Source: Elusimicrobiales bacterium (GTDB lineage: Bacteria > Elusimicrobiota > Elusimicrobia > Elusimicrobiales > UBA9959). From it: DNA of 30,928 bases. The notes under the pieces were generated by a model. The model made no database searches. It saw only the letters and a program-made list of their open reading frames with translations, and had not been told where the DNA came from. Positions 1 through 30,928 of the stretch are shown piece by piece. The DNA is taken from NCBI GenBank assembly GCA_049972095.1, contig JBMFKQ010000019.1, forward strand, positions 1 through 30,928. The letters run 5' to 3'. The position numbers and the translations under genes are program-made. Numbering within the stretch: the first letter of the stretch is position 1; every line of letters begins with the position of its first letter.

Positions 1-16
1 CACTAAACCTTATCAT
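1..16 (-). CDS. possible 5' end of a gene running off the left edge (M-I-R-F-S...)
   Basis: Minus-strand ATG at 16-14 with GGAG (26-23) 6 nt upstream; only 5 codons visible. Confidence 0.25.
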
Positions 17-178
17 ACACAACTCCAGATATGTCTTAAAATCTGTTATGCTAAAAGTTTATTATGTTTATGAGATTATGCATTTAAACTACACTGCCCT
101 GTTATAATAATAATTAGAACTAACCTTCTTTTTTAGTTTTTAATAGTTTTTCTTTTTGCTTTAAATAACCCAAAATCG

Positions 179-213
179 CTTCACCTTTCACCTCTCACTT
201 CTCACATCTCACA
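179..213. repeat. degenerate 7-bp tandem repeat, 5 units (YYTCACH)
   Basis: CTTCACC TTTCACC TCTCACT TCTCACA TCTCACA read directly. Confidence 0.85.
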
Positions 214-266
214 TATTTTGGTAGTATTATATATAAAATCTTACAAATTTATAAAATAATTTTAAG

Positions 267-1334
267 ATGACAGAAGTATATAAACTCAAGATAGCATTAA
301 CATCTTCCTGCACCCTAAGATGTAACCACTGTAATATAGATAAAGATTCCGGGCTTGATATTGATTTTAATAAAGCTAAGGCAGGGGTTGATCTTTTGTT
401 CTCTTCACCAGGATATTTTAAAAGGCTTGAGTTATATGGTGGGGAACCTTTTTTAAGATTTTCACTTCTAAAAAAGATTGCTTCTTACGCAAGGAGAAAG
501 TCTATTGAAAACGACAAAAAATTTTCACTTTCAATAGCTACAAACGCCACTTTATTAAACAAAAATATTATATCGTGGATAAAAGAAAACAAAGTTAATA
601 TCTCTATCAGCTTTTCTGGTACAGAAGAAAGTCATAATTATAACAGAAGATATGCTAATGGAAAAGGAAGTTATGAGGTTGTATATAGAAATATAAAAAA
701 CCTTCTTAAGGAAGTCTCTCCAGACTATCTGGTTTGTCTTTATTGTGTAGATGGAGGGTTTGCTAAAAACATGAGAAAAGATTTTAAGGAAATAATAGAT
801 ATTGGTTTTAGAATTATAAACATAGAATGTGTTTCCGGACGAGGGTGGTGTGTAAAAGATTATAAAGAATTTGAAAAAGGGCTTTCTTTCATTTTCGAAA
901 ATATAATAAAAAGTATTGAAAACGGCAATTTTATATACTTAGAGTCTTTTACAGAAATGTTAAGAGACAAGCGCACATGGACTTTTAACTGTCCTATGTA
1001 TAGAGATCTAGAAATGTATCCTGATGGCAATTATGGTTTCTATCCATATGCTTTTATAAAATATTCATCTGTTTATAAAAAAATATCAGTTGGAAACTGG
1101 AAAAATGGGATTAATTTCCGATATAGCAATTGTTTTCCTGGGTGCAATAGTTGTAATTCATGCTGTTCAGACTACTATATATTACAAGGGCTTTCTGATG
1201 GTTCTTATGCCTATCAGATAAGAACTCATATGATAAAGCAATTTTTTTTAGAGTTACTTAGAAGAAAAAAAGAAGAAAAAATTAAAAATTATCTTTTAAA
1301 ACTACAAAAAATAATAAATATTACATATATCTGA
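267..1334 (+). CDS. radical SAM protein, anSME/SPASM-twitch-like (putative maturase)
   Basis: CTLRCNHC (CxxxCxxC), YGGEP, ATNATLL; C-terminal CPM..YPDG and Cys-rich CFPGCNSCNSCC. Confidence 0.9.
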   Translation: MTEVYKLKIALTSSCTLRCNHCNIDKDSGLDIDFNKAKAGVDLLFSSPGYFKRLELYGGEPFLRFSLLKKIASYARRKSIENDKKFSLSIATNATLLNKNIISWIKENKVNISISFSGTEESHNYNRRYANGKGSYEVVYRNIKNLLKEVSPDYLVCLYCVDGGFAKNMRKDFKEIIDIGFRIINIECVSGRGWCVKDYKEFEKGLSFIFENIIKSIENGNFIYLESFTEMLRDKRTWTFNCPMYRDLEMYPDGNYGFYPYAFIKYSSVYKKISVGNWKNGINFRYSNCFPGCNSCNSCCSDYYILQGLSDGSYAYQIRTHMIKQFFLELLRRKKEEKIKNYLLKLQKIINITYI

Positions 1335-1382
1335 AGATAAAATATTTTATTAACCATAAAATTTTTCATCCAATATTCTTCA

Positions 1383-1460
1383 ATCAAACATTCATCATTC
1401 AAAATTTAAATTTAAAATTCAATTCAAAATCATCTCACGTCTTATACCTCACTTTTCATG
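1383..1460. repeat. degenerate 7-bp tandem repeats (ATTCAAA-type, then TCTCACN-type)
   Basis: ATCAAAC ATTCATC ATTCAAA ATTTAAA ... ATTCAAA ... TCTCACG TCTTATA CCTCACT TTTCATG. Confidence 0.6.
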
Positions 1461-1622
1461 CTATTACTTAATGAGTTTATGTTATTTTTCAATTCGCGCA
1501 CTTTTTTAATCTCAATGTTTTTGATTCTATTTCAATTTAAAGGCTAAGGAAACTTTAAAATCAATAATCCAAACATCCAAATCACGTCTCATTTTACTAA
1601 TTACTAATATATCTACTTTTTG

Positions 1623-1628
1623 TATAAT
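1623..1628 (+). promoter_or_regulatory. putative sigma70 -10 box
   Basis: TATAAT 15 nt before ATG 1644; AT-rich background weakens the signal. Confidence 0.4.
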
Positions 1629-1643
1629 AACTATATAAAGTTT

Positions 1644-2501
1644 ATGAAAATAAAAATTCAAGTAGGTGTAAATAAAAAAAGTGATCTTGAATATTTCATC
1701 TCTAAGGGTGCTGATGAGCTTTACTGTGGTATAACACATGTGCCATCCCACTGCTATCGTTCAAGAACATTTGATTCAGTTGAAGATGTTATAAATGCCA
1801 AAGACAAAGCAAGAACTAAGAAAATAAAATTTTTTTTTGTAGCAAATGAAGTCGAGTCCAATAATTTTTACGAGACAGTATCAGTGATAGAATATCTTGT
1901 GAGAAACAAAATAGATGGTATCATAATAAGAGACATAGGACTTTTAAAATACCTCAAAGAAAAAAAAATAAATACATATTTTATACTCTCAAGCTTGTCA
2001 CTCTGCTTTAATATTGAAGCACTAAAATTTTATTCTTTACTTGGAATAAAAAGAATAGCCATACCTGAACAGATAACACCTGACGAAGCAAAACCGCTAA
2101 TCCAAAATCCATTTGGTATAGATACAGAGGTTTTTATAACAGCAAGGGAATACTGTAGGGTTTTAAATGGATTTTGTTATTTAACACAGTTCACTGATAA
2201 ATGTATCTGCCGACAAGAATTTCAAGCAGGCAATAGAAATTTTTTTATACCAGCCCCAAAGCCCCAGGAACACTACAAAAATCTCTATAGATTTTTAAAA
2301 TACGGTACCAGAATTATTAAAGTGGGAAGACATCCTCAAGATTTTTATGGTAAATTCATATTATCAGAGGTATTAGCATTAAAAGAAATATTAATGAAGA
2401 ATAACTTAACAGAAGATGATTTTTTAAAGAAAATAATGAAAATACATAAAAAGAATTCAAAGGTACTTGAAAAATGCGTAAAATTATACAAAGAGCAGTG
2501 A
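1644..2501 (+). CDS. peptidase U32 family Fe-S protein (UbiU/TrhP-like), copy 1
   Basis: GADELYCG signature, IDGIIIRDIG, LGIKRIAIP, TEVF then C-x6-C-x8-C-x-C, IKVGR; ATG 1644 preferred over the track's TTG 1620. Confidence 0.85.
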   Translation: MKIKIQVGVNKKSDLEYFISKGADELYCGITHVPSHCYRSRTFDSVEDVINAKDKARTKKIKFFFVANEVESNNFYETVSVIEYLVRNKIDGIIIRDIGLLKYLKEKKINTYFILSSLSLCFNIEALKFYSLLGIKRIAIPEQITPDEAKPLIQNPFGIDTEVFITAREYCRVLNGFCYLTQFTDKCICRQEFQAGNRNFFIPAPKPQEHYKNLYRFLKYGTRIIKVGRHPQDFYGKFILSEVLALKEILMKNNLTEDDFLKKIMKIHKKNSKVLEKCVKLYKEQ

Positions 2502-3154
2502 TATATCCAAATTTCAAATACCAAAGTATTGAGAAAATTAATGGCTACAACATAATATATTTAGGAAGTGAATTCTGTGCTAACATGATGCCATCATTAA
2601 GTGATATTCAAACAGCAATTGATAAAGGATATGAAAAAGTTGTTCTTTTTGTGCCATTCTTAACTCAAAGGAGATTTAAGGATTATTCAAGACTTATTGA
2701 TTTCTCTGTAAAAAAATTTAAAAAATTCATTGAAATATCAACATCTGATCTGGGAATAATAAATCTTCTAAGTCTCAAATATCCTGATCTTCCTAAAAAC
2801 ATATCAAGGCCATTATCAATTGAATTTGTCCGGATGAAAGAGGAACTTCTTAAAAAAGCTATTTTAGAGCTTAAAATAGATGCTATAGAAACTGATGAGC
2901 CACTATTTGCTGAAAAGATTAAAAAAATGAATGTAAAAGTTTATTTTCATAGTGATTTTGCATTTGTTGCAGTTCAAAGACACTGTCCTTTTGTTGGGAA
3001 AATAACATATAAATGCAACAGATTATGTAAAGGCAGAGAGATAACACTTAATGTTCCTGAAAGTAATTATAAAATATATGTAAGGAACAATGTTTATCTC
3101 AAAAAAGAAAAAAAAATACTAAAAGGTGTATACAGAATAATACACTGGCCATAA
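2474..3154 (+). CDS. UbiV-like U32 partner subunit, copy 1
   Basis: IYLGSEFC (compare UbiV YLGExVC), SDLG, RHC..CNRLC; overlaps the U32 gene by 28 nt. Confidence 0.7.
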   Translation: MRKIIQRAVIYPNFKYQSIEKINGYNIIYLGSEFCANMMPSLSDIQTAIDKGYEKVVLFVPFLTQRRFKDYSRLIDFSVKKFKKFIEISTSDLGIINLLSLKYPDLPKNISRPLSIEFVRMKEELLKKAILELKIDAIETDEPLFAEKIKKMNVKVYFHSDFAFVAVQRHCPFVGKITYKCNRLCKGREITLNVPESNYKIYVRNNVYLKKEKKILKGVYRIIHWP

Positions 3155-3156
3155 AA

Positions 3157-3264
3157 ATGCCACACAAATGTTTAAAGATGGAATGAAAGTAAGAATATGT
3201 AAAGACAGAGTGAAGCTTGCCGACTTTAAGTCGCATCCTCACTCTCTTTAAGTGGCATAGCCCC
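3157..3264. mobile_element. MITE/REP-like palindromic element (~100 bp)
   Basis: Imperfect terminal IR ATGCCACACAAA (3157-3168) / TTTAAGTGGCAT (3247-3258); internal ~50-nt hairpin 3200-3250 centred on CGACT-TTA-AGTCG. Confidence 0.4.
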
Positions 3265-3352
3265 CAAACTCAAAGGATTTTTAATTTCCTTCCTAAACTC
3301 AGAAATTCTATTTTTCTAAAACAATATAAAAAATTTTGTAGAATTTAGGTTA

Positions 3353-4060
3353 ATGAAAAAGCTATATATATGTGGATATGGTCTTACTGAGGATGATATT
3401 AGTCTAAAAACCCTAAGAATACTTGAAAAATCAGACATAATAATATCGCCCTCACTTGATAAACACAATTTTATATCAAGATACTTACTAAAACTTTCTA
3501 AAAAAACAATTGTAAATGTTCGTAACCTACCACCTGAAAAAATTATATCAAAGATCCTTAATACTTTAAACAAGTTCGATATAGTATCTCTTCTTGTTTA
3601 TGGAAACCCACTTTTTATGAATATAATAACAGAAATGTTAATTAAAAGAATAAAAAATACAGAAATAGTAACCATTCCTGCAATCTCGTCGTTTGATCTG
3701 ATGTTTCATGTAATACCCATGCTTAATATATCTTCAGAAAAAATTGTTTTACTTAATAACAGAATCATTGAAAAGGATAGCCGTGATAGAAAAATACTTG
3801 ATATGGATATATCATCACACATATTTTTATTTGGGGCAGAAGCAATGAGATCCAGAGCTAAAAAAGTATTCTTTGAGAGTTTCATAAAATACTATGGCAG
3901 AGAACATCCGCTCTACATTATACATACTGAGGACATTACCGTTCAGGAAAGAATAATAAAGAAAATAAAAATAGAAGATATATCAAAACATCTTCACAAA
4001 AATATAATGCAAACCCTTTATATACCTCCCAAAAAATCATTAACCACAGCTTTAACATAG
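3353..4060 (+). CDS. SAM-dependent methyltransferase, tetrapyrrole-methylase fold (borosin/YabN-N-like), copy 1
   Basis: LYICGYG..ISLKTLRILEKSD, LVYGNP, IPAISSFD, YYGREHPL, TLYIPP. Confidence 0.85.
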   Translation: MKKLYICGYGLTEDDISLKTLRILEKSDIIISPSLDKHNFISRYLLKLSKKTIVNVRNLPPEKIISKILNTLNKFDIVSLLVYGNPLFMNIITEMLIKRIKNTEIVTIPAISSFDLMFHVIPMLNISSEKIVLLNNRIIEKDSRDRKILDMDISSHIFLFGAEAMRSRAKKVFFESFIKYYGREHPLYIIHTEDITVQERIIKKIKIEDISKHLHKNIMQTLYIPPKKSLTTALT

Positions 4061-4803
4061 ATCTTTGAAAGCAACTGAGGTTTAATAAATAAAGTATCGT
4101 TCATTTTTTTATAAACAGAATTTTCACACAAAAAAAGATCTATATTAAATTTTTTAACATAAATTTTGTAGTCACCATAAATGCATGAGTTATCACACTC
4201 TATTCCTTTAGGGGTATCTTGTTGTGAAATATCATGAAAACCAACTGTGCAATTTCTTGATGTTGAAAGGAGAGAAAAAGGATGATGAAGAATAAACTCA
4301 AATCTTATTCCCCTATTCTTAAGAACATAAAGATTGTTATTATTTGGAAATTTGTCAAACGAGGATATCTCAAAATATTTAACACCACATTTGTTTATAA
4401 GATCAAGCGAATAAATACTATTAAATTCAAATATATTTTTCCCAAGTGAAAAAAAATATTTTGTAAAATGCCTGCCTATACTGATCTCAAAGTCTTTACC
4501 AAATATCTTTTTGATTAGAGAAAGTGTTCCAAAATCATTTAAAGAGAAAATAAAATAATCAGGCAATAGGTCTTTTTTAATACCTCTCAATAAAAAAGTC
4601 AAGTATTCAAAAGTCTTTTGTGAAAGTGGTGGAATTGAAAGTATAACCTTTTTTTTAAGCTTTATAAGTTTTTTAATATATCTGGCATAGCAAAAAACAA
4701 GATTTTCACATGTCTCACTTCCAAAATGTATAAAGTCATAATCATCAAAAAAATTTAAAAGTCTCTCAAATAAATTAACCCTTACTCTAAGTCCTTTTTT
4801 CAT
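4018..4803 (-). CDS. UbiV-like U32 partner subunit, copy 2
   Basis: IHFGSETC, NDFG, IGR, TSRNC..CDNSC; paralogous to 2474-3154; overlaps the U32 gene by 17 nt. Confidence 0.7.
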   Translation of the reverse strand: MKKGLRVRVNLFERLLNFFDDYDFIHFGSETCENLVFCYARYIKKLIKLKKKVILSIPPLSQKTFEYLTFLLRGIKKDLLPDYFIFSLNDFGTLSLIKKIFGKDFEISIGRHFTKYFFSLGKNIFEFNSIYSLDLINKCGVKYFEISSFDKFPNNNNLYVLKNRGIRFEFILHHPFSLLSTSRNCTVGFHDISQQDTPKGIECDNSCIYGDYKIYVKKFNIDLFLCENSVYKKMNDTLFIKPQLLSKIYVKAVVNDFLGGI

Positions 4804-5707
4804 ATCTTTGATATTGAGCTATAAATCTTTCCTTTGCCTCATCAGTCTTATAAAGAGATAAAAGCATTTCAATATTCCTAATCGTTTTTCTTATAGAGGA
4901 CACATTTTTTATTTTAACTGCGGTGGGGTCAGTTCTGCTGCCGTATTTTGCAAAATCAACACCATTCACAAAGTAATCAAAGAAAGAAGAAGCATTGAGT
5001 ATCCTTGGAATATTACCGTGGTTAAGTCTATCATTTATTCTATGAAGGAGTTTTTTATTCTCTTTTCCAAGCGCAATTACCTTAGCCTCAAATCCCCCAT
5101 GGCCAAACCTGCACATGCTTCCATCTCTACTTATATCCATCTTAAGATATCTATCTCCATGAAGATAACAGTAACCATTAAGATAAGGACATCCAAAATA
5201 TCTGAAGAAAAAAATCTCTGTTTTAATCTCATTTTTCTTACACCATTCAATAATAGGCTTACCTTCAAAAGCAGATAACTGATTTGGTAATATAAGCCTT
5301 TTAAATTTTTTCCCAAGCACTTTTCTTATAAATTCAGCACAAGCAGTGTTCATTACATAAACAACAGAGCTTATATGAATAGATATATCTGGAAATTCTT
5401 CTTTAATATATCTTCCAAAACCTATATCGGAAACTATAACAGATCTAACACCAGCTTTAATGGTTTTTTTAAGATTCTTTATATCACTTTCTGTATAAGG
5501 TGTTGTAAAGCTATTTACTGCAAGATGAAAATTCACATTGAGTTTATTACATATCTCAATAGCTTTTTTCAGCTGCTCAAAATTTCTAAATGAAGCTGTA
5601 TCTATATAATTGCGAAGCCAACTAACGCCAAAATAAATCTCATCAGCACCTGCTTTAATTATGTACGGTATTTCAAGAGGATCTGTAACACAGGAAAGAA
5701 TCTTCAT
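4787..5707 (-). CDS. peptidase U32 family Fe-S protein (UbiU/TrhP-like), copy 2
   Basis: GADEIYFG, LAVN, VIVSDIG, IHISS, RLILP, TEIFF..C-x6-C-x18-C, KYGSR. Confidence 0.9.
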   Translation of the reverse strand: MKILSCVTDPLEIPYIIKAGADEIYFGVSWLRNYIDTASFRNFEQLKKAIEICNKLNVNFHLAVNSFTTPYTESDIKNLKKTIKAGVRSVIVSDIGFGRYIKEEFPDISIHISSVVYVMNTACAEFIRKVLGKKFKRLILPNQLSAFEGKPIIEWCKKNEIKTEIFFFRYFGCPYLNGYCYLHGDRYLKMDISRDGSMCRFGHGGFEAKVIALGKENKKLLHRINDRLNHGNIPRILNASSFFDYFVNGVDFAKYGSRTDPTAVKIKNVSSIRKTIRNIEMLLSLYKTDEAKERFIAQYQRYEKRT

Positions 5708-5715
5708 TACTAAAT

Positions 5716-5725
5716 ATTATATAAT
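5716..5725. promoter_or_regulatory. overlapping divergent -10 boxes (palindrome ATTATATAAT)
   Basis: TATAAT on + at 5720-5725, 6 nt before ATG 5732; TATAAT on - at 5721-5716, 8 nt before ATG 5707; 24-bp spacer with no SD. Confidence 0.6.
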
Positions 5726-5731
5726 TTTTAT

Positions 5732-6457
5732 ATGAAAACGCTAATAATTGCATCAACAGGAATAGGAAAAAAGGATATAAGTGTAGAAAGTATAGAAAAA
5801 ATAAATTCAACAGAAGCTTTGCTTAATTTCTCTTCACATGGTAGCAATTTCCTATCAAAATTTGTAAAGATAAAGATAATAAATATAAATGAAAAACTAT
5901 CATATGAAGGTAATGCCTTCAAAAAAATAAACATCATATTCAAAACAATTAAAAAATTATTTCTTAGTCTTTCCAGGATATCACTGGTAGTAAGTGGAAA
6001 TCCATCTTTCTTAAATATCTTTGTTCAAGAAATAGTAAAAAGGGTAAAAAAAATGAATATCAATGTTGAAGTGATCCCTGCTGTTTCTTCAATCGATTAT
6101 GTAATAAACATAATAACAATGCATATAAATCCAGATTTAAGATCATATATAATACTCACATCACCATTTCAACTTCCCTTTCTTTATGAATATAAATTCT
6201 TAAAACATGATATCATAGTGATGAATTTTCATACTATCAATAGCTCAACAACCAAGGATAAAAAAAGAATTTTAGAATTGTTAGAATCAATACCTGAAAA
6301 AGAATGTTATCTCATAAAACACAATTTCAAGACTTCAAAAAATATAATTAAAAAAAGATTTATAAAAAATATAAAAGAAATCATAAGCCATATAGATAAT
6401 GAAACGACAATCTATATACCATTTGATAAAAAGTATAACGTTAAACGGCATAAATGA
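5732..6457 (+). CDS. SAM-dependent methyltransferase, tetrapyrrole-methylase fold (borosin/YabN-N-like), copy 2
   Basis: LIIASTGIG..ISVES, VVSGNP, VIPAVSSID, TTIYIP; paralog of 3353-4060. Confidence 0.8.
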   Translation: MKTLIIASTGIGKKDISVESIEKINSTEALLNFSSHGSNFLSKFVKIKIININEKLSYEGNAFKKINIIFKTIKKLFLSLSRISLVVSGNPSFLNIFVQEIVKRVKKMNINVEVIPAVSSIDYVINIITMHINPDLRSYIILTSPFQLPFLYEYKFLKHDIIVMNFHTINSSTTKDKKRILELLESIPEKECYLIKHNFKTSKNIIKKRFIKNIKEIISHIDNETTIYIPFDKKYNVKRHK

Positions 6458-6463
6458 TATAAT
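6455..6463 (+). promoter_or_regulatory. putative extended -10 promoter for nusB-ligA
   Basis: TGATATAAT (TGnTATAAT) ~30 nt upstream of nusB. Confidence 0.45.
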
Positions 6464-6495
6464 ATTTACTATATAGTTCTTTCAAAGAGAAAGCT

Positions 6496-6918
6496 ATGCG
6501 CATAAGCAAAAGGACAAGAGCAAGGATAAGCTGCTTTGTATCTCTCTATCTCTATGATGTGGGGAAAATCCCTCCTAAAGAAATTCTCTCAACATTTATA
6601 AACAATCAGCAAAACATCGGAGTTCTTGCCCAGCCACAGATAAGAAAGTTTTATGAAGAGCTTTTTTTAACAACAGTGAAAAATATTGATGAAATAGACA
6701 GGATTATACAAACTGCCACAGAAAAGCCAATATATCCAGTTGATAAAGCAATAATAAGAATGGCAACTGCAGAGATGCTCTATATGAAAAACGAGGTTGC
6801 AGTTGTTATAAATGAGGCAATAGAAATTTCAAAGATGTATTCTCCAAATGAAGAGAAAGGTCCTGATTTTATAAACGGGGTCTTAGATACCATAGCAAAA
6901 TCTTATCAGCTCAAATGA
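6496..6918 (+). CDS. nusB: transcription antitermination factor NusB
   Basis: Arg-rich N-terminus RTRAR, VDKAIIRMA..E, VVINEAIEISK, FINGVLD. Confidence 0.95.
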   Translation: MRISKRTRARISCFVSLYLYDVGKIPPKEILSTFINNQQNIGVLAQPQIRKFYEELFLTTVKNIDEIDRIIQTATEKPIYPVDKAIIRMATAEMLYMKNEVAVVINEAIEISKMYSPNEEKGPDFINGVLDTIAKSYQLK

Positions 6919-8915
6919 CAGAAAAAGAGGCAGCAAAAAGAATAGAGGAGCTCAAAAGAGTTATAAACAGGCATAACTATCTATACTATGTGGAAAATAA
7001 GCCGGAGATAACTGATCTTGAGTTTGACAAGCTTCTAAATGAATTAAAAGAGCTTGAGAAAAGATTCCCAAATCTTATCACTCCTGATTCCCCAACTCAA
7101 AAGGTTGGAGGAATGGCTTCATCGGACTTTAAACCAGTAAAACACACACCCCCTATGCTTTCGCTTGACAACTGTTATTCAGAAGAGGAGTTAAATGAGT
7201 GGTATGAAAGGATAAAAAAAATAATTAAGACAAATGAGTTTGATTTGATATGCGAGGCGAAAATAGATGGGCTTTCATGTGCTGTAGAGTATAGAGACGG
7301 ACTATTCTTTAAAGCCTCCACAAGGGGAGATGGGCAAATAGGAGAGGATGTAACCGAAAATGTAAAGACAATACCTTCTCTTCCACTCAAGATAGATACT
7401 CCAAAAAACTCTATCATAGAATTCAGAGGTGAGGTCTATCTAACAAAAAAGGAATTTGAAGAGATAAACTTACAGCAGATAAAAAATGGAGAGGAACCTT
7501 TTTCAAATCCAAGAAACGCAGCAAGCGGCTCACTCAGACAAAAGGATCCACGCATAACTGCAAAAAGAAAGCTTAGATTTGCGGTTCACTCTTATGGAAG
7601 GATAGAAGGCTTTAATGAACCTAAAACACAAGAGGAATATTTTGAACTTTCAAAAAAGCTAATGATACCAATAAATCCGTTCTGGAAAAAAGTAAAAAAC
7701 TTAAATGAGGTGATAGAGTTTTATAATGAGATGAGTGAAAAAAGAAATATGCTTGACTTTGAGATAGATGGAGTGGTGGTAAAGGTTAATGATTTTGATT
7801 TAAGAAAGATACTTGGAGAAACTGCAAAAAATCCAAGATGGGCAATAGCATTCAAATTTAAAGCGGAACAGGCTAAAACCCTTCTTAAAGATGTTATATT
7901 TTCAGTGGGAAGAACAGGGATAGTCACTCCAGTAGCTGTTCTTGAACCAGTTAGGTGTGGTGGTGTTATAATATCAAGCTCAACACTCCATAATTTTGAT
8001 GAGATAAAACGACTTGATGTAAAGATAGGGGATAAAGTAATAGTTGAAAGGGCAGGGGATGTTATACCAAAGATTGTAAGAGCAGTTAAGGAAGAAAGAA
8101 ATGGAAATGAAAAAGAAATAAAGATACCTTCAAAATGTCCAAGCTGCAACTCAGAGTTATTCAGAGAAGAAAATGAAGTTTATATAAGATGCATAAACCC
8201 AAATTGTGCGGCTCAACTAAAAAAAAGCATACTACATTTCGCCTCAAGAGATGCAATGAATATAGAAGGGTTGGGTGAAAATACTGTTGATGACCTTTTA
8301 GAAAAAGGATTGATAAAAAAGATAAGTGATATATACCATCTAAAGAAAGAGGATTTATTAAAACTTGAACTTTTTAAGGATAAAAAAGCAGAAAATCTTT
8401 TAAAACAGATAGAAAACTCAAAAAAACAAAATCTTGATAAGGTTATATATGCTCTTGGAATAAGACATGTTGGTGAAAAAACTGCAAGGACTCTTTCAGA
8501 AAAATTCAAAAATATTGATAGCCTTATGAATGCTAAACTTGATGAGCTCTCGTCAATTGCGGAGATAGGTCCAATAATTGCTCAATCCATCTACAATTTT
8601 TTCAATCAGAAATCAGTAAGAACTCTTATAAAAGAGTTAAAGGATGCTGGAATAAATATGAATTATCATGAAGAAAAAAGAGGGGAAAAACTAAAAGCTC
8701 TTACATTTGTATTCACAGGTGAGCTTAAAAATATGACAAGAGCAGATGCCGAGAACAAGGTTATGGAGCTTGGGGGAAAGGTATCCAGCTCAGTGTCTTC
8801 AAAAACATCATTTGTTGTGGTTGGGGAAAATCCAGGTTCAAAGTATGAAAAGGCAAAAAAGATTGGGGTTAAGATAATAAATGAAGATGAGTTTTTGAAA
8901 ATGATAGAGAAATGA
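6915..8915 (+). CDS. ligA: NAD-dependent DNA ligase
   Basis: KIDG adenylation motif, TRGDG, NPRNAASGSLRQ, PRWAIAFKF, Cys4 zinc finger, C-terminal BRCT. Confidence 0.98.
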   Translation: MTEKEAAKRIEELKRVINRHNYLYYVENKPEITDLEFDKLLNELKELEKRFPNLITPDSPTQKVGGMASSDFKPVKHTPPMLSLDNCYSEEELNEWYERIKKIIKTNEFDLICEAKIDGLSCAVEYRDGLFFKASTRGDGQIGEDVTENVKTIPSLPLKIDTPKNSIIEFRGEVYLTKKEFEEINLQQIKNGEEPFSNPRNAASGSLRQKDPRITAKRKLRFAVHSYGRIEGFNEPKTQEEYFELSKKLMIPINPFWKKVKNLNEVIEFYNEMSEKRNMLDFEIDGVVVKVNDFDLRKILGETAKNPRWAIAFKFKAEQAKTLLKDVIFSVGRTGIVTPVAVLEPVRCGGVIISSSTLHNFDEIKRLDVKIGDKVIVERAGDVIPKIVRAVKEERNGNEKEIKIPSKCPSCNSELFREENEVYIRCINPNCAAQLKKSILHFASRDAMNIEGLGENTVDDLLEKGLIKKISDIYHLKKEDLLKLELFKDKKAENLLKQIENSKKQNLDKVIYALGIRHVGEKTARTLSEKFKNIDSLMNAKLDELSSIAEIGPIIAQSIYNFFNQKSVRTLIKELKDAGINMNYHEEKRGEKLKALTFVFTGELKNMTRADAENKVMELGGKVSSSVSSKTSFVVVGENPGSKYEKAKKIGVKIINEDEFLKMIEK

Positions 8916-30370: not shown

Positions 30371-30928
30371 ATGATAACTATGGAAAAATTGTTAGATAAT
30401 TTAAAAAAATTACTTCAGAAAGATGAGCGTTTAGTTAGCGAAGGTGAGATTTTGAAGAATAAAATTATTGAGCTTGCTTTGAAGTTGGATAAGGATTTAA
30501 TAAAACTTCTTTTGTCTGATGAAAAGATGAAAGAGGTATTTTTTGTTGATGTAGAAGGAACTTTAATTTTTGATAAAGATAAGTTTATTAAGTTTGTTTC
30601 TAATAAGCAATTTTTACCGGATTCTTATACTGCTTTTAAAAATAAAATCGGTTTGATAGACGAAAAAGGCGAATTTATCAGTGAGAAAAAAGAGGTTGTG
30701 CTTTCCTGGCCATATAAGGACTGTGTTCTTGAAGGCGGAATGACCAAAGAAGACCAAAAAAGAGATGAGATTTTCTGGAATGAGATTTTAGCTCCGGATG
30801 AAATCAGCAGATTGTTAGACCCAAAAGTTTTTACTAATGCAAAAAGAATTGATGCAAAAGGAGAACATAAATTTGATGGCTTTAGAACCGATGAAAAAGG
30901 AAACATAAAAGATAATTTAATCATCAAA
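30371..30928 (+). CDS. mod: type III restriction-modification methyltransferase (Mod), 5' partial
   Basis: Open frame from ATG 30371 (or 30380) to the window end: MEKLLDNLKK..FLPDSYTAFKNKIGL..VVLSWPYKDCVLEGGMTKEDQKRDEIFWNEILAPDEI.RLLDPK..DNLIIK, recognised as a Mod N-terminal region; catalytic motifs lie beyond the window. Confidence 0.82.
   Translation, partial: MITMEKLLDNLKKLLQKDERLVSEGEILKNKIIELALKLDKDLIKLLLSDEKMKEVFFVDVEGTLIFDKDKFIKFVSNKQFLPDSYTAFKNKIGLIDEKGEFISEKKEVVLSWPYKDCVLEGGMTKEDQKRDEIFWNEILAPDEISRLLDPKVFTNAKRIDAKGEHKFDGFRTDEKGNIKDNLIIK

Follow-up and report, generated by a model that had tools for sequence, protein, structure and literature searches.

The stretch of DNA analysed here (the window) comprises the first 30,928 bases of contig C19 in the assembly of an Elusimicrobiota bacterium (58 contigs, 1.44 Mb, 96.5% complete), referred to below as the source genome. 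Its left end carries seven genes for a radical S-adenosylmethionine (rSAM) enzyme, two pairs of U32-type proteins and two methyltransferases (MTs), whose relation to a His-Xaa-Ser (Hxs)-type peptide-maturation cluster is the subject of this analysis. An initial annotation had listed these open reading frames (ORFs) in the order rSAM> U32a> U32b> MT> <U32b' <U32a' MT'>, and both order and strand were confirmed. On the forward strand, the rSAM gene (267..1334, 355 aa) is followed by U32a1 (1644..2501), the UbiU-like subunit of a U32-family Fe-S protein; by Pb1 (2474..3154), a Pfam-less U32-like partner with a UbiV-type Cys motif; and by MT1 (3353..4060), a methyltransferase of the tetrapyrrole (TP)-methylase fold. 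Pb2 (4018..4803), the second Pfam-less U32-like partner, and U32a2 (4787..5707), the second U32-family Fe-S protein, lie on the reverse strand, and MT2 (5732..6457), again a TP-methylase-fold methyltransferase, returns to the forward strand. The U32a1 ORF is open from TTG 1620, and ATG 1644 fits the homolog alignment better. MT2 and U32a2 are arranged head-to-head with their start codons 24 nt apart, as they are in a related genome, G010 (18 nt apart), so that the promoters must sit within neighbouring coding regions. A scan of positions 1-7000 gave no usable transcription-unit signal (45 promoter-like sites vs. 41.1 ± 6.2 expected; 4 terminator-like sites vs. 2.1 ± 1.5 expected). No window protein reaches the curated NCBIfam cut-offs for UbiU, TrhP, PapB or cobalamin methylases. 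The window also lacks a precursor, transporter or protease gene, as had been stated, but it is cut at position 1.

The rSAM protein is of a short, PapB-like type (PF04055, 50.9 bits) with a CX3CX2C motif and a Cys-rich C-terminus. PapB is its best NCBIfam model, at 140.5 bits against a cut-off of 340, and no SPASM domain (PF13186) was detected in it at E ≤ 0.1. C15, C19, C22 and C242 are invariant, with one C-terminal Cys followed by a PDG motif and the Cys-rich stretch. The protein is 41% identical to its G010 ortholog, whose gene adjoins, on the downstream side, a gene for a precursor with His-Gly-Ser (HGS) repeats.

U32a1 and U32a2 match only the N-terminal half of the PF01136 profile, with 58.6 and 49.1 bits against a gathering score of 22.4. 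The model for UbiU (NF047963, cut-off 440) gives 49.6 bits for U32a1 and 61.6 for the second U32a, and that for TrhP (NF011996, cut-off 534) gives 46.9 and 49.8 bits. Pb1 and Pb2 have no Pfam or NCBIfam match, and PF01136 is found in 0 of 25 Pb family members. Aligned by hhalign, however, Pb and 21 U32a proteins are colinear over 150 columns (probability 51%, E 1.5e-4), and the AlphaFold model of Pb1 (predicted local distance difference test score, pLDDT, 95.6) has as its top PDB fold match the U32 peptidase Mk0906 (5D88; E 1e-5, template-modelling (TM) score 0.56/0.52). CutC barrels come next; 5D88 is the sole solved U32 protein among the matches. The Pb profile also weakly matches a canonical 414-aa U32 gene (Pfam 287 bits), and PDB sequence searches with the Pb and U32a profiles returned nothing below E 0.27. 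Judged from profiles and predicted structure, the Pb partners appear U32-like, with a similarity that is moderate rather than strong. The two U32 pairs of the initial annotation are thus borne out by Pfam for genes 2 and 6, whereas their Pfam-less partners qualify as U32-like through profile, fold and Cys motif.

Four Cys are common to 25 Pb-type proteins (C35, C171, C181 and C185 in Pb1 numbering), and the family alignment shows all four kept in Pb2. Among 137 Pb sequences, C35, C171 and C185 are invariant and C181 is present in at least 90%. Only two Cys are invariant in U32a, where a third, completing CX6C, is partly conserved. UbiU and UbiV form a heterodimer and carry the motifs CX6CX16CX38C and CXnCX12CX3C, respectively (PMC6747719). 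As in UbiV, the first Cys of Pb lies far upstream of the others, which form C-X9-C-X3-C. The window pairs further resemble UbiU-UbiV in setting a recognisable U32 protein beside a divergent partner and, among relatives of the window pair, in a linkage to chorismate mutase. They differ in scoring 49.6-61.6 bits rather than 440, in the escape of Pb from PF01136, in having two invariant Cys in U32a, and in their surroundings, a peptide cluster with no ubi genes nearby. The evidence for U32a/Pb pairing is gene adjacency, with overlaps of 28 nt between U32a1 and Pb1 and 17 nt between Pb2 and U32a2, and the two genes are adjacent in all Elusimicrobiota relatives examined. By exhaustive profile search, the Pb family holds 1964 clusters at E ≤ 1e-3, 1329 at 1e-10 and 169 at 1e-30; the mere 8 relatives of Pb1 and 4 of MT1 returned by a word-index protein search reflect the limit of that index and are not evidence of rarity.

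MT1 and MT2 belong to PF00590 (38.5 and 30.3 bits). When a profile of seven MT sequences was compared with the PDB, the SonM/borosin alpha-N-methyltransferases came first (3.2e-5), ahead of CbiF (6.2e-5) and diphthine synthase (~0.05-0.15). The MT1 model (pLDDT 80.8) has only borosin enzymes (SonM, OphMA, dbOphMA, MroMA) among its listed fold matches down to rank 39 (TM 0.69-0.79), and CbiF, at rank 40 (TM 0.62), is the first non-borosin among the matches listed. Cobalamin methylase models score 14-26 bits against cut-offs of 93-298. The earlier description of the two enzymes as borosin-like therefore holds by both sequence profile and fold, and MT1 shares with borosins about 20% identity and the C-terminal IPP.KK and YG.P motifs. 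No small conserved ORF beside the MT genes is present in the ORF list, and no dedicated search for a SonA-like protein was run. MT paralogs also occur at L046:7729-11123 (genome G006) and L047:7129-9421 (G011), next to a conserved ~510-aa protein of no known family, a phospholipase D (PLD)-like gene and gatB/NUDIX genes. At L057:9992-11452 and L059:9992-11452, a 486-aa ORF matches both MT1 (1.5e-27) and MT2 (6.2e-23); at about twice the MT length, it may be a tandem fusion of two MT domains.

Because the window begins at the contig start, the cluster is cut at position 1 and the seven-gene set is probably not stand-alone. In G010, a near-gapless array of ~24 genes, including ~13 rSAM genes, runs over ~24 kb from C20:118,349 down to 94,664, mostly with overlaps of a few bases. 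It begins with genes for an HxsD-like protein, HxsB, an uncharacterised 356-aa protein, a 117-aa precursor and the ortholog of the window rSAM. There follow an rSAM, a B12-binding rSAM, a Dph6-like ATP pyrophosphatase, five rSAMs (two of them HxsB-like), an uncharacterised 398-aa protein and three more rSAMs. The array ends with MT1, an rSAM and a U32a-Pb pair, all co-directional, and then with Pb2-U32a2 and MT2. Beyond it lie genes for a peptidyl-prolyl isomerase and an M20 peptidase, then nusB, ligA and purH, which is the same site as in the window. In the source genome, the end of another contig, C2, is collinear with the first part of the G010 array, and 12 of the 18 proteins scanned there are rSAM enzymes. 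Two C2 proteins exceed the cut-off of 370 for HxsB (TIGR03978) with 509.1 and 439.1 bits, and a third scores 247.8; the HxsB-scoring proteins are on C2, with none in the window.

C2 also encodes a 113-aa precursor (73,075-73,416), which scores 51.6 bits against the HxsA4 cut-off of 55 and is 76% identical to the 117-aa G010 ortholog. It has a basic N-terminus and a conserved leader, SSEEGK.LDSD.VKT..ALGI.G, that looks like an export signal, followed by ~17 His-x-Ser (mostly His-Gly-Ser) repeats and a C-terminal RGGWC. No Pfam domain was found in it, and hence no peptidoglycan-binding domain. The rings available in its core are the recurring His imidazole, Tyr and Phe ahead of the repeats, and a terminal Trp or Tyr. 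An uncharacterised protein of 353 aa, for which the ESM Atlas gave no lead, adjoins the precursor and precedes it in the main clusters. G010 has a second precursor copy, ending in HGSY, at L052:10122-11598 (C20:170121-171597), which likewise lies beside a homolog of the 353-aa protein; this protein may be a precursor-specific partner. A scan for His-rich ORFs in all fetched loci recovered only the known precursors. The idea that the precursor ending tracks MT presence was rejected, as G012 has a WC ending without an MT match and G011 an SY ending with MTs. The Dph6-like ATP pyrophosphatase (61.6 bits vs. 197) and B12-binding rSAM of G010 (L044:5983-8633) are absent from the source assembly's cluster; the combination of a Dph6-like enzyme with a His-rich substrate in G010 recalls, by analogy, diphthamide chemistry.

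C2 and C19 likely join. Positions 1..85 of the window (no strand assigned) are the right half of a dispersed ~280-bp repeat at which the contig breaks. They match C7:178-262; the terminal ~86 nt of C2 correspond to C7:1-86, and the orientation is the same. The two contigs also share an unusually low GC content. As the initial annotation had observed, the seven-gene block is more AT-rich than its neighbours, with 28.2% GC against 34.2% in the remaining window and 34.0% in the genome; only 0.17% of 1187 genome-wide 6.2-kb windows have a GC content this low, and no part of the genome is richer in AT than this block. Of the 12 genome windows with GC ≤30%, 8 fall in C2:77-88 kb or at the window start, which are the two main regions of lowest GC. 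Since the repeat occurs in at least 10 copies, of which at least two are full and internal (one at C4:20892-21173), the C2-C19 match is not proof of the join. Copies are also found at C7:1-262 and at the ends of C2, C40, C37, C1 and C29, and their presence at many contig ends probably fragments the assembly. Scans of the window start and two other repeat copies against tRNA and Rfam models found no match, so the contig break is not a tRNA integration site.

Two claims of the initial annotation thus need revision. It had taken the seven genes for a self-contained system without a precursor, whereas they appear rather to be the end of a larger Hxs-type cluster with a candidate precursor on C2; and it had presented the pathway as a candidate undescribed one, although the Hxs core family is known. 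The RiPP-like setting that it proposed (RiPP, ribosomally synthesised and post-translationally modified peptide) agrees with a context that is a RiPP-type rSAM cluster. Its interpretation is upheld in part. Linkage among the genes is conserved and is not a matter of chance proximity: the seven gene types recur in G010 and in a metagenome locus (L053), and in part in another (L054). MT homologs are also found in unrelated contexts. L053 has the same seven gene types as the window, in sizes identical to those of G010, and is therefore not independent. L054 represents a third organism (29% GC); its rSAM array is of the same kind and includes homologs of MT1 and Pb2 together with a fragment of U32a2.

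We surveyed a sample of 151 genomes of the phylum for these genes. The precursor profile matched 11 of the 151, namely 6/6 in the window's family and 2/3 in each of two other families of the class, with 0 elsewhere. Pb profile matches were found in 29/151 genomes, 18 of them at E ≤1e-26; the remainder consisted of fragments and of weak matches, including some that fell on canonical U32 genes. Eight of the 11 precursor genomes have Pb (G009, G006 and G168 do not), and in 6/8 the two are on the same contig, 4.6-30 kb apart; ten genomes outside the class have Pb without the precursor. The MT profile was confined, among sampled phylum genomes, to the window's family (4/6 sampled, in addition to the source genome). 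Of the U32a-Pb loci with a length of at least 10 kb, some of which are duplicates, 18 of 23 contain cluster-type rSAM genes. Pb2 orthologs follow U32a2-type genes in G010, G019, L033 and L054. At L050:1418-11535 (G071), a U32a-Pb pair is arrayed with three other rSAMs, a B12-binding rSAM, two family 2 glycosyltransferases and a carbamoyltransferase, in what looks like a glycan-type context. The source genome itself contains a truncated Pb-like ORF of ~170 C-terminal residues at C37:2498-3007 (L030), with no U32a partner and a stop within the match. It is 45% identical to the G010 in-cluster Pb and probably represents the degraded remains of a third pair.

A tree of 38 U32a sequences, from which the duplicates L031, L034 and L036, the partial L032 and an 83-aa fragment of L054 were left out, separates the two window proteins. 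U32a2 falls in a five-member clade (100/99), all of whose members are in loci that also hold rSAM genes. U32a1 groups with seven others (99/99), five of which lie beside shikimate genes, outside rSAM arrays. The order in G010 and G019 is response regulator, U32a, Pb, chorismate mutase, 3-deoxy-D-arabino-heptulosonate 7-phosphate synthase, shikimate dehydrogenase, chorismate synthase, shikimate kinase and 3-dehydroquinate synthase, and a U32a-Pb pair abuts the shikimate operon in three more genera and in L040/L041. The source genome has this operon on C10 without the pair, its response regulator and chorismate mutase genes being 38 nt apart, which indicates that U32a1-Pb1 has moved into the cluster. 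The loci that combine a U32a-Pb pair with shikimate genes are L019:8128-14124 (G010:C21), L022, L016-L018, L040 and L041, and the pair-less operon is at C10:13857-18296. According to PMC10990095, prephenate is the oxygen donor for UbiU-V, and the U32 family mechanism is proposed to start by oxidising an aromatic ring. Prephenate is the product of the shikimate and chorismate mutase genes, and their linkage to the pairs fits both points. As genomic evidence, these neighbours support the prephenate link independently, in a phylum distant from E. coli and outside Proteobacteria.

On balance, and judging from gene content and homology, we favour the view that the seven genes supply accessory modules, for hydroxylation and for methylation, to an expanded cluster that matures a His-Xaa-Ser peptide. 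They would form the tailoring end of an Hxs-type rSAM peptide-maturation cluster of roughly 25-30 kb in this Elusimicrobiota bacterium, with the 113-aa C2 precursor as the presumed substrate. As one of 13 rSAM enzymes, the window rSAM would introduce cross-links or other changes into the peptide. Each U32a/Pb pair may be a UbiU/UbiV-like Fe-S heterodimer; with prephenate as oxygen donor and no need of O2, it would hydroxylate one of the peptide's aromatic rings. The imidazole of the repeated His is the obvious candidate site, and the flanking Tyr, Phe and Trp are alternatives. MT1 and MT2 might then act as borosins do and methylate backbone amides; alternatively, their target might be the newly formed hydroxyl group or an imidazole nitrogen. 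The finished peptide could serve in metal binding, in an envelope function, or in phage defence as in four-gene HXS. It is from the prephenate link, together with the aromatic rings of the precursor, that we infer hydroxylation of peptide rings with methylation. The more specific proposal, that U32a/Pb pairs are peptide-directed, prephenate-dependent, O2-independent hydroxylases acting on imidazoles or flanking Tyr/Trp of an exported (His-Gly-Ser)n peptide whose product is methylated by the borosin-like enzymes, is one we regard as possible and advance only tentatively.

Several observations weigh against placing the seven genes in such a cluster or giving them these activities. In the source genome, the link between window and precursor spans a contig break and rests on synteny and a multicopy repeat. 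The Hxs assignment is itself uneven, with the best HxsC-like protein at 168.4 bits vs. 267.9 (TIGR03977) and the HxsD-like protein at 34.4 vs. 50 (TIGR03976). The window U32a1-Pb1 pair is orthologous to the shikimate-linked pair of G010 (C21) and not to the pair inside the G010 cluster, so its ancestral neighbourhood was not the peptide cluster. Cluster-type rSAM genes are missing from five of the 23 U32-pair loci that reach 10 kb, and in another family of the phylum such pairs lie among glycosyltransferases and a carbamoyltransferase, with the HGS precursor in 0/44 genomes. MT homologs in G006, G011 and G010:C6 are next to gatB/NUDIX/PLD-like or unrelated genes. Among 27 metagenome loci retrieved with the MT1 alignment, 25 have no U32 pair; these carry distant MT homologs, several of the loci are short, and two have one rSAM-like ORF nearby. 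Finally, the MTs depart from borosins in being shorter, with neither a fused core peptide nor a SonA-like partner evident in the ORF list. SonM residues 58-72, a loop with Y58 and R67, are an insertion missing from MT1-type proteins, and the YG.P tyrosine equivalent to SonM Y93 (YGNP) is kept in MT1-type proteins and is Ser or His in MT2-type proteins. We take Y58, R67 and Y93 to be catalytic, with positions read from mutant names in PDB titles. With the U32a1 clade beside shikimate genes and MT homologs elsewhere, the link between these modules and the peptide is therefore inferential rather than demonstrated.

In the main rival explanation, the U32 pairs and MTs act on a non-peptide aromatic substrate, such as a tRNA or rRNA base, a quinone or a chorismate-derived ring, and are mere neighbours of the peptide cluster. 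We consider this unlikely. Beyond the shikimate linkage of the U32a1 clade in 5/7 other members and the absence of the pair from the C10 shikimate site, from which it moved, the source genome offers no further U32 gene for the role of TrhP or RlhA, and it has a MenA-like prenyltransferase and a polyprenyl synthase; the prenyltransferase is, however, on another contig, C16. A precedent for RNA exists in Bacillus subtilis, where yrrMNO, a methyltransferase and two U32 proteins, produces 5-methoxyuridine (mo5U) in tRNA. The window resembles this TrhP1/TrhP2-TrmR arrangement, and TrhP and RlhA more broadly, in having paired U32 proteins beside a methyltransferase and hence a possible hydroxylation followed by methylation. 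It differs from TrhP1/TrhP2-TrmR in its scores (47-50 bits vs. 534 for TrhP), in the fold of its methyltransferases and in the rSAM peptide cluster around it. Against this rival, the scores of 47-62 bits are far below the TrhP/UbiU cut-offs of 440-534, and the Pb1 homologs, found with a single query in 10/24 family genomes, are patchy for a housekeeping RNA modification. In G010, moreover, a U32 pair and MT1 are embedded in an overlapping, co-directional rSAM array, and it is peptide N-methyltransferases that the MTs most resemble, rather than RsmI or UbiG/UbiE types.

A different possibility is that the seven genes and the rest of the cluster together make up an enlarged HXS system for phage defence, with the matured peptide keeping phage DNA out of the cell. 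HxsB homologs that exceed the cut-off, the HxsD-like protein, and the HxS repeats and export-like leader of the precursor all point that way, and according to PMC13128918 the canonical HxsD-B-C-A system blocks phage DNA entry by means of an rSAM-matured periplasmic effector. The same paper places 99.7% of HXS in Pseudomonadota and describes more than 99.8% as four-protein systems. The precursor here is a 113-aa peptide with no Pfam domain and with ~17 repeats; it is present in 6/6 sampled genomes of the family and the cluster occupies the same nusB-adjacent site in two genera, so that it looks inherited, unlike a patchy defence island. PADLOC, whose library is older than the HXS paper, found only generic rSAM-core similarity to viperins. 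We therefore think a defence role for the cluster quite improbable. Tailoring of a tetrapyrrole or similar cofactor, as proposed for the rSAM-rich, group VI nitrogenase-like loci of Elusimicrobia, is more improbable still, to the point of being barely credible. The TP-methylase fold of the MTs, a HemN/ChuW-like rSAM on C2, and the tetrapyrrole reduction predicted for such loci in 10.1101/765248 speak for it. Against it, the 96.5% complete source genome has only three TP-methylase genes and lacks a NifH above cut-off, a NifD/K family match and ALAD, on which grounds nitrogenase-like and tetrapyrrole readings were rejected for this genome, and cobalamin methylase scores are low (14-26 bits vs. 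93-298). The two kinds of locus are alike in phylum and in their many adjacent rSAM genes, including B12-binding and HemN-like ones; the source genome differs in having no NifH, NifD or NifK homologs. In the passages of 10.1101/765248 retrieved by a term search, U32 proteins and methyltransferases have 0 occurrences each; the paper was not searched for a repeat peptide.

The accessory-module reading, which we prefer, places the cluster near the HXS system (TIGR03976-03978; PMC13128918) by its HxsB above cut-off, its HxsD-like protein, its HxsC-like rSAMs, and a precursor in which tandem His-x-Ser repeats are combined with export-like features at the N-terminus. In the canonical system, an SHRSS motif acquires a modification of +8 Da and the effector is exported (PMC13128918). 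The cluster differs in having ~13 rSAM genes rather than two, with two U32 pairs and two TP-methylase-fold enzymes added; in a short precursor with ~17 repeats and no peptidoglycan-binding domain; in HxsC-like and HxsD-like proteins below their cut-offs; in belonging to Elusimicrobiota instead of Pseudomonadota; and in having its core genes on another contig. The ~24-gene array of G010 also departs from the four-gene D-B-C-A order, as it begins D, B, an uncharacterised gene, A. Among the literature matches listed, no paper linked U32 proteins to RiPPs and none described expanded Hxs clusters, Hxs terms returning the 2026 HXS paper, its preprint and incidental mentions.

If the preferred reading is correct, oxygen-free hydroxylation and methylation would be added to a peptide system known only in four-gene form, and four-gene HXS would have large relatives in which over a dozen rSAM enzymes serve one (His-Gly-Ser)n peptide. 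The known U32 reactions hydroxylate only quinones and RNA bases, with no in vitro assay, according to PMC10990095. If a U32 pair were dedicated to a ribosomal peptide, the range of substrates of the family would become wider, and a small, expressible substrate could make the prephenate-dependent mechanism directly testable. Should the tentative hydroxylase proposal hold as well, the precursor would be the first protein or peptide substrate of a U32 enzyme, and the product a poly-histidine peptide that owes its heavy modification entirely to anaerobic chemistry of Fe-S and SAM enzymes.

Downstream of the seven-gene block, the window continues with nusB (6496), ligA, a purH-like gene, gpsA, dnaE and an 11-subunit Nuo-like cluster. 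An ORF that leaves the window at its right end (30371-30928) contains a Type III restriction-modification methylase domain.

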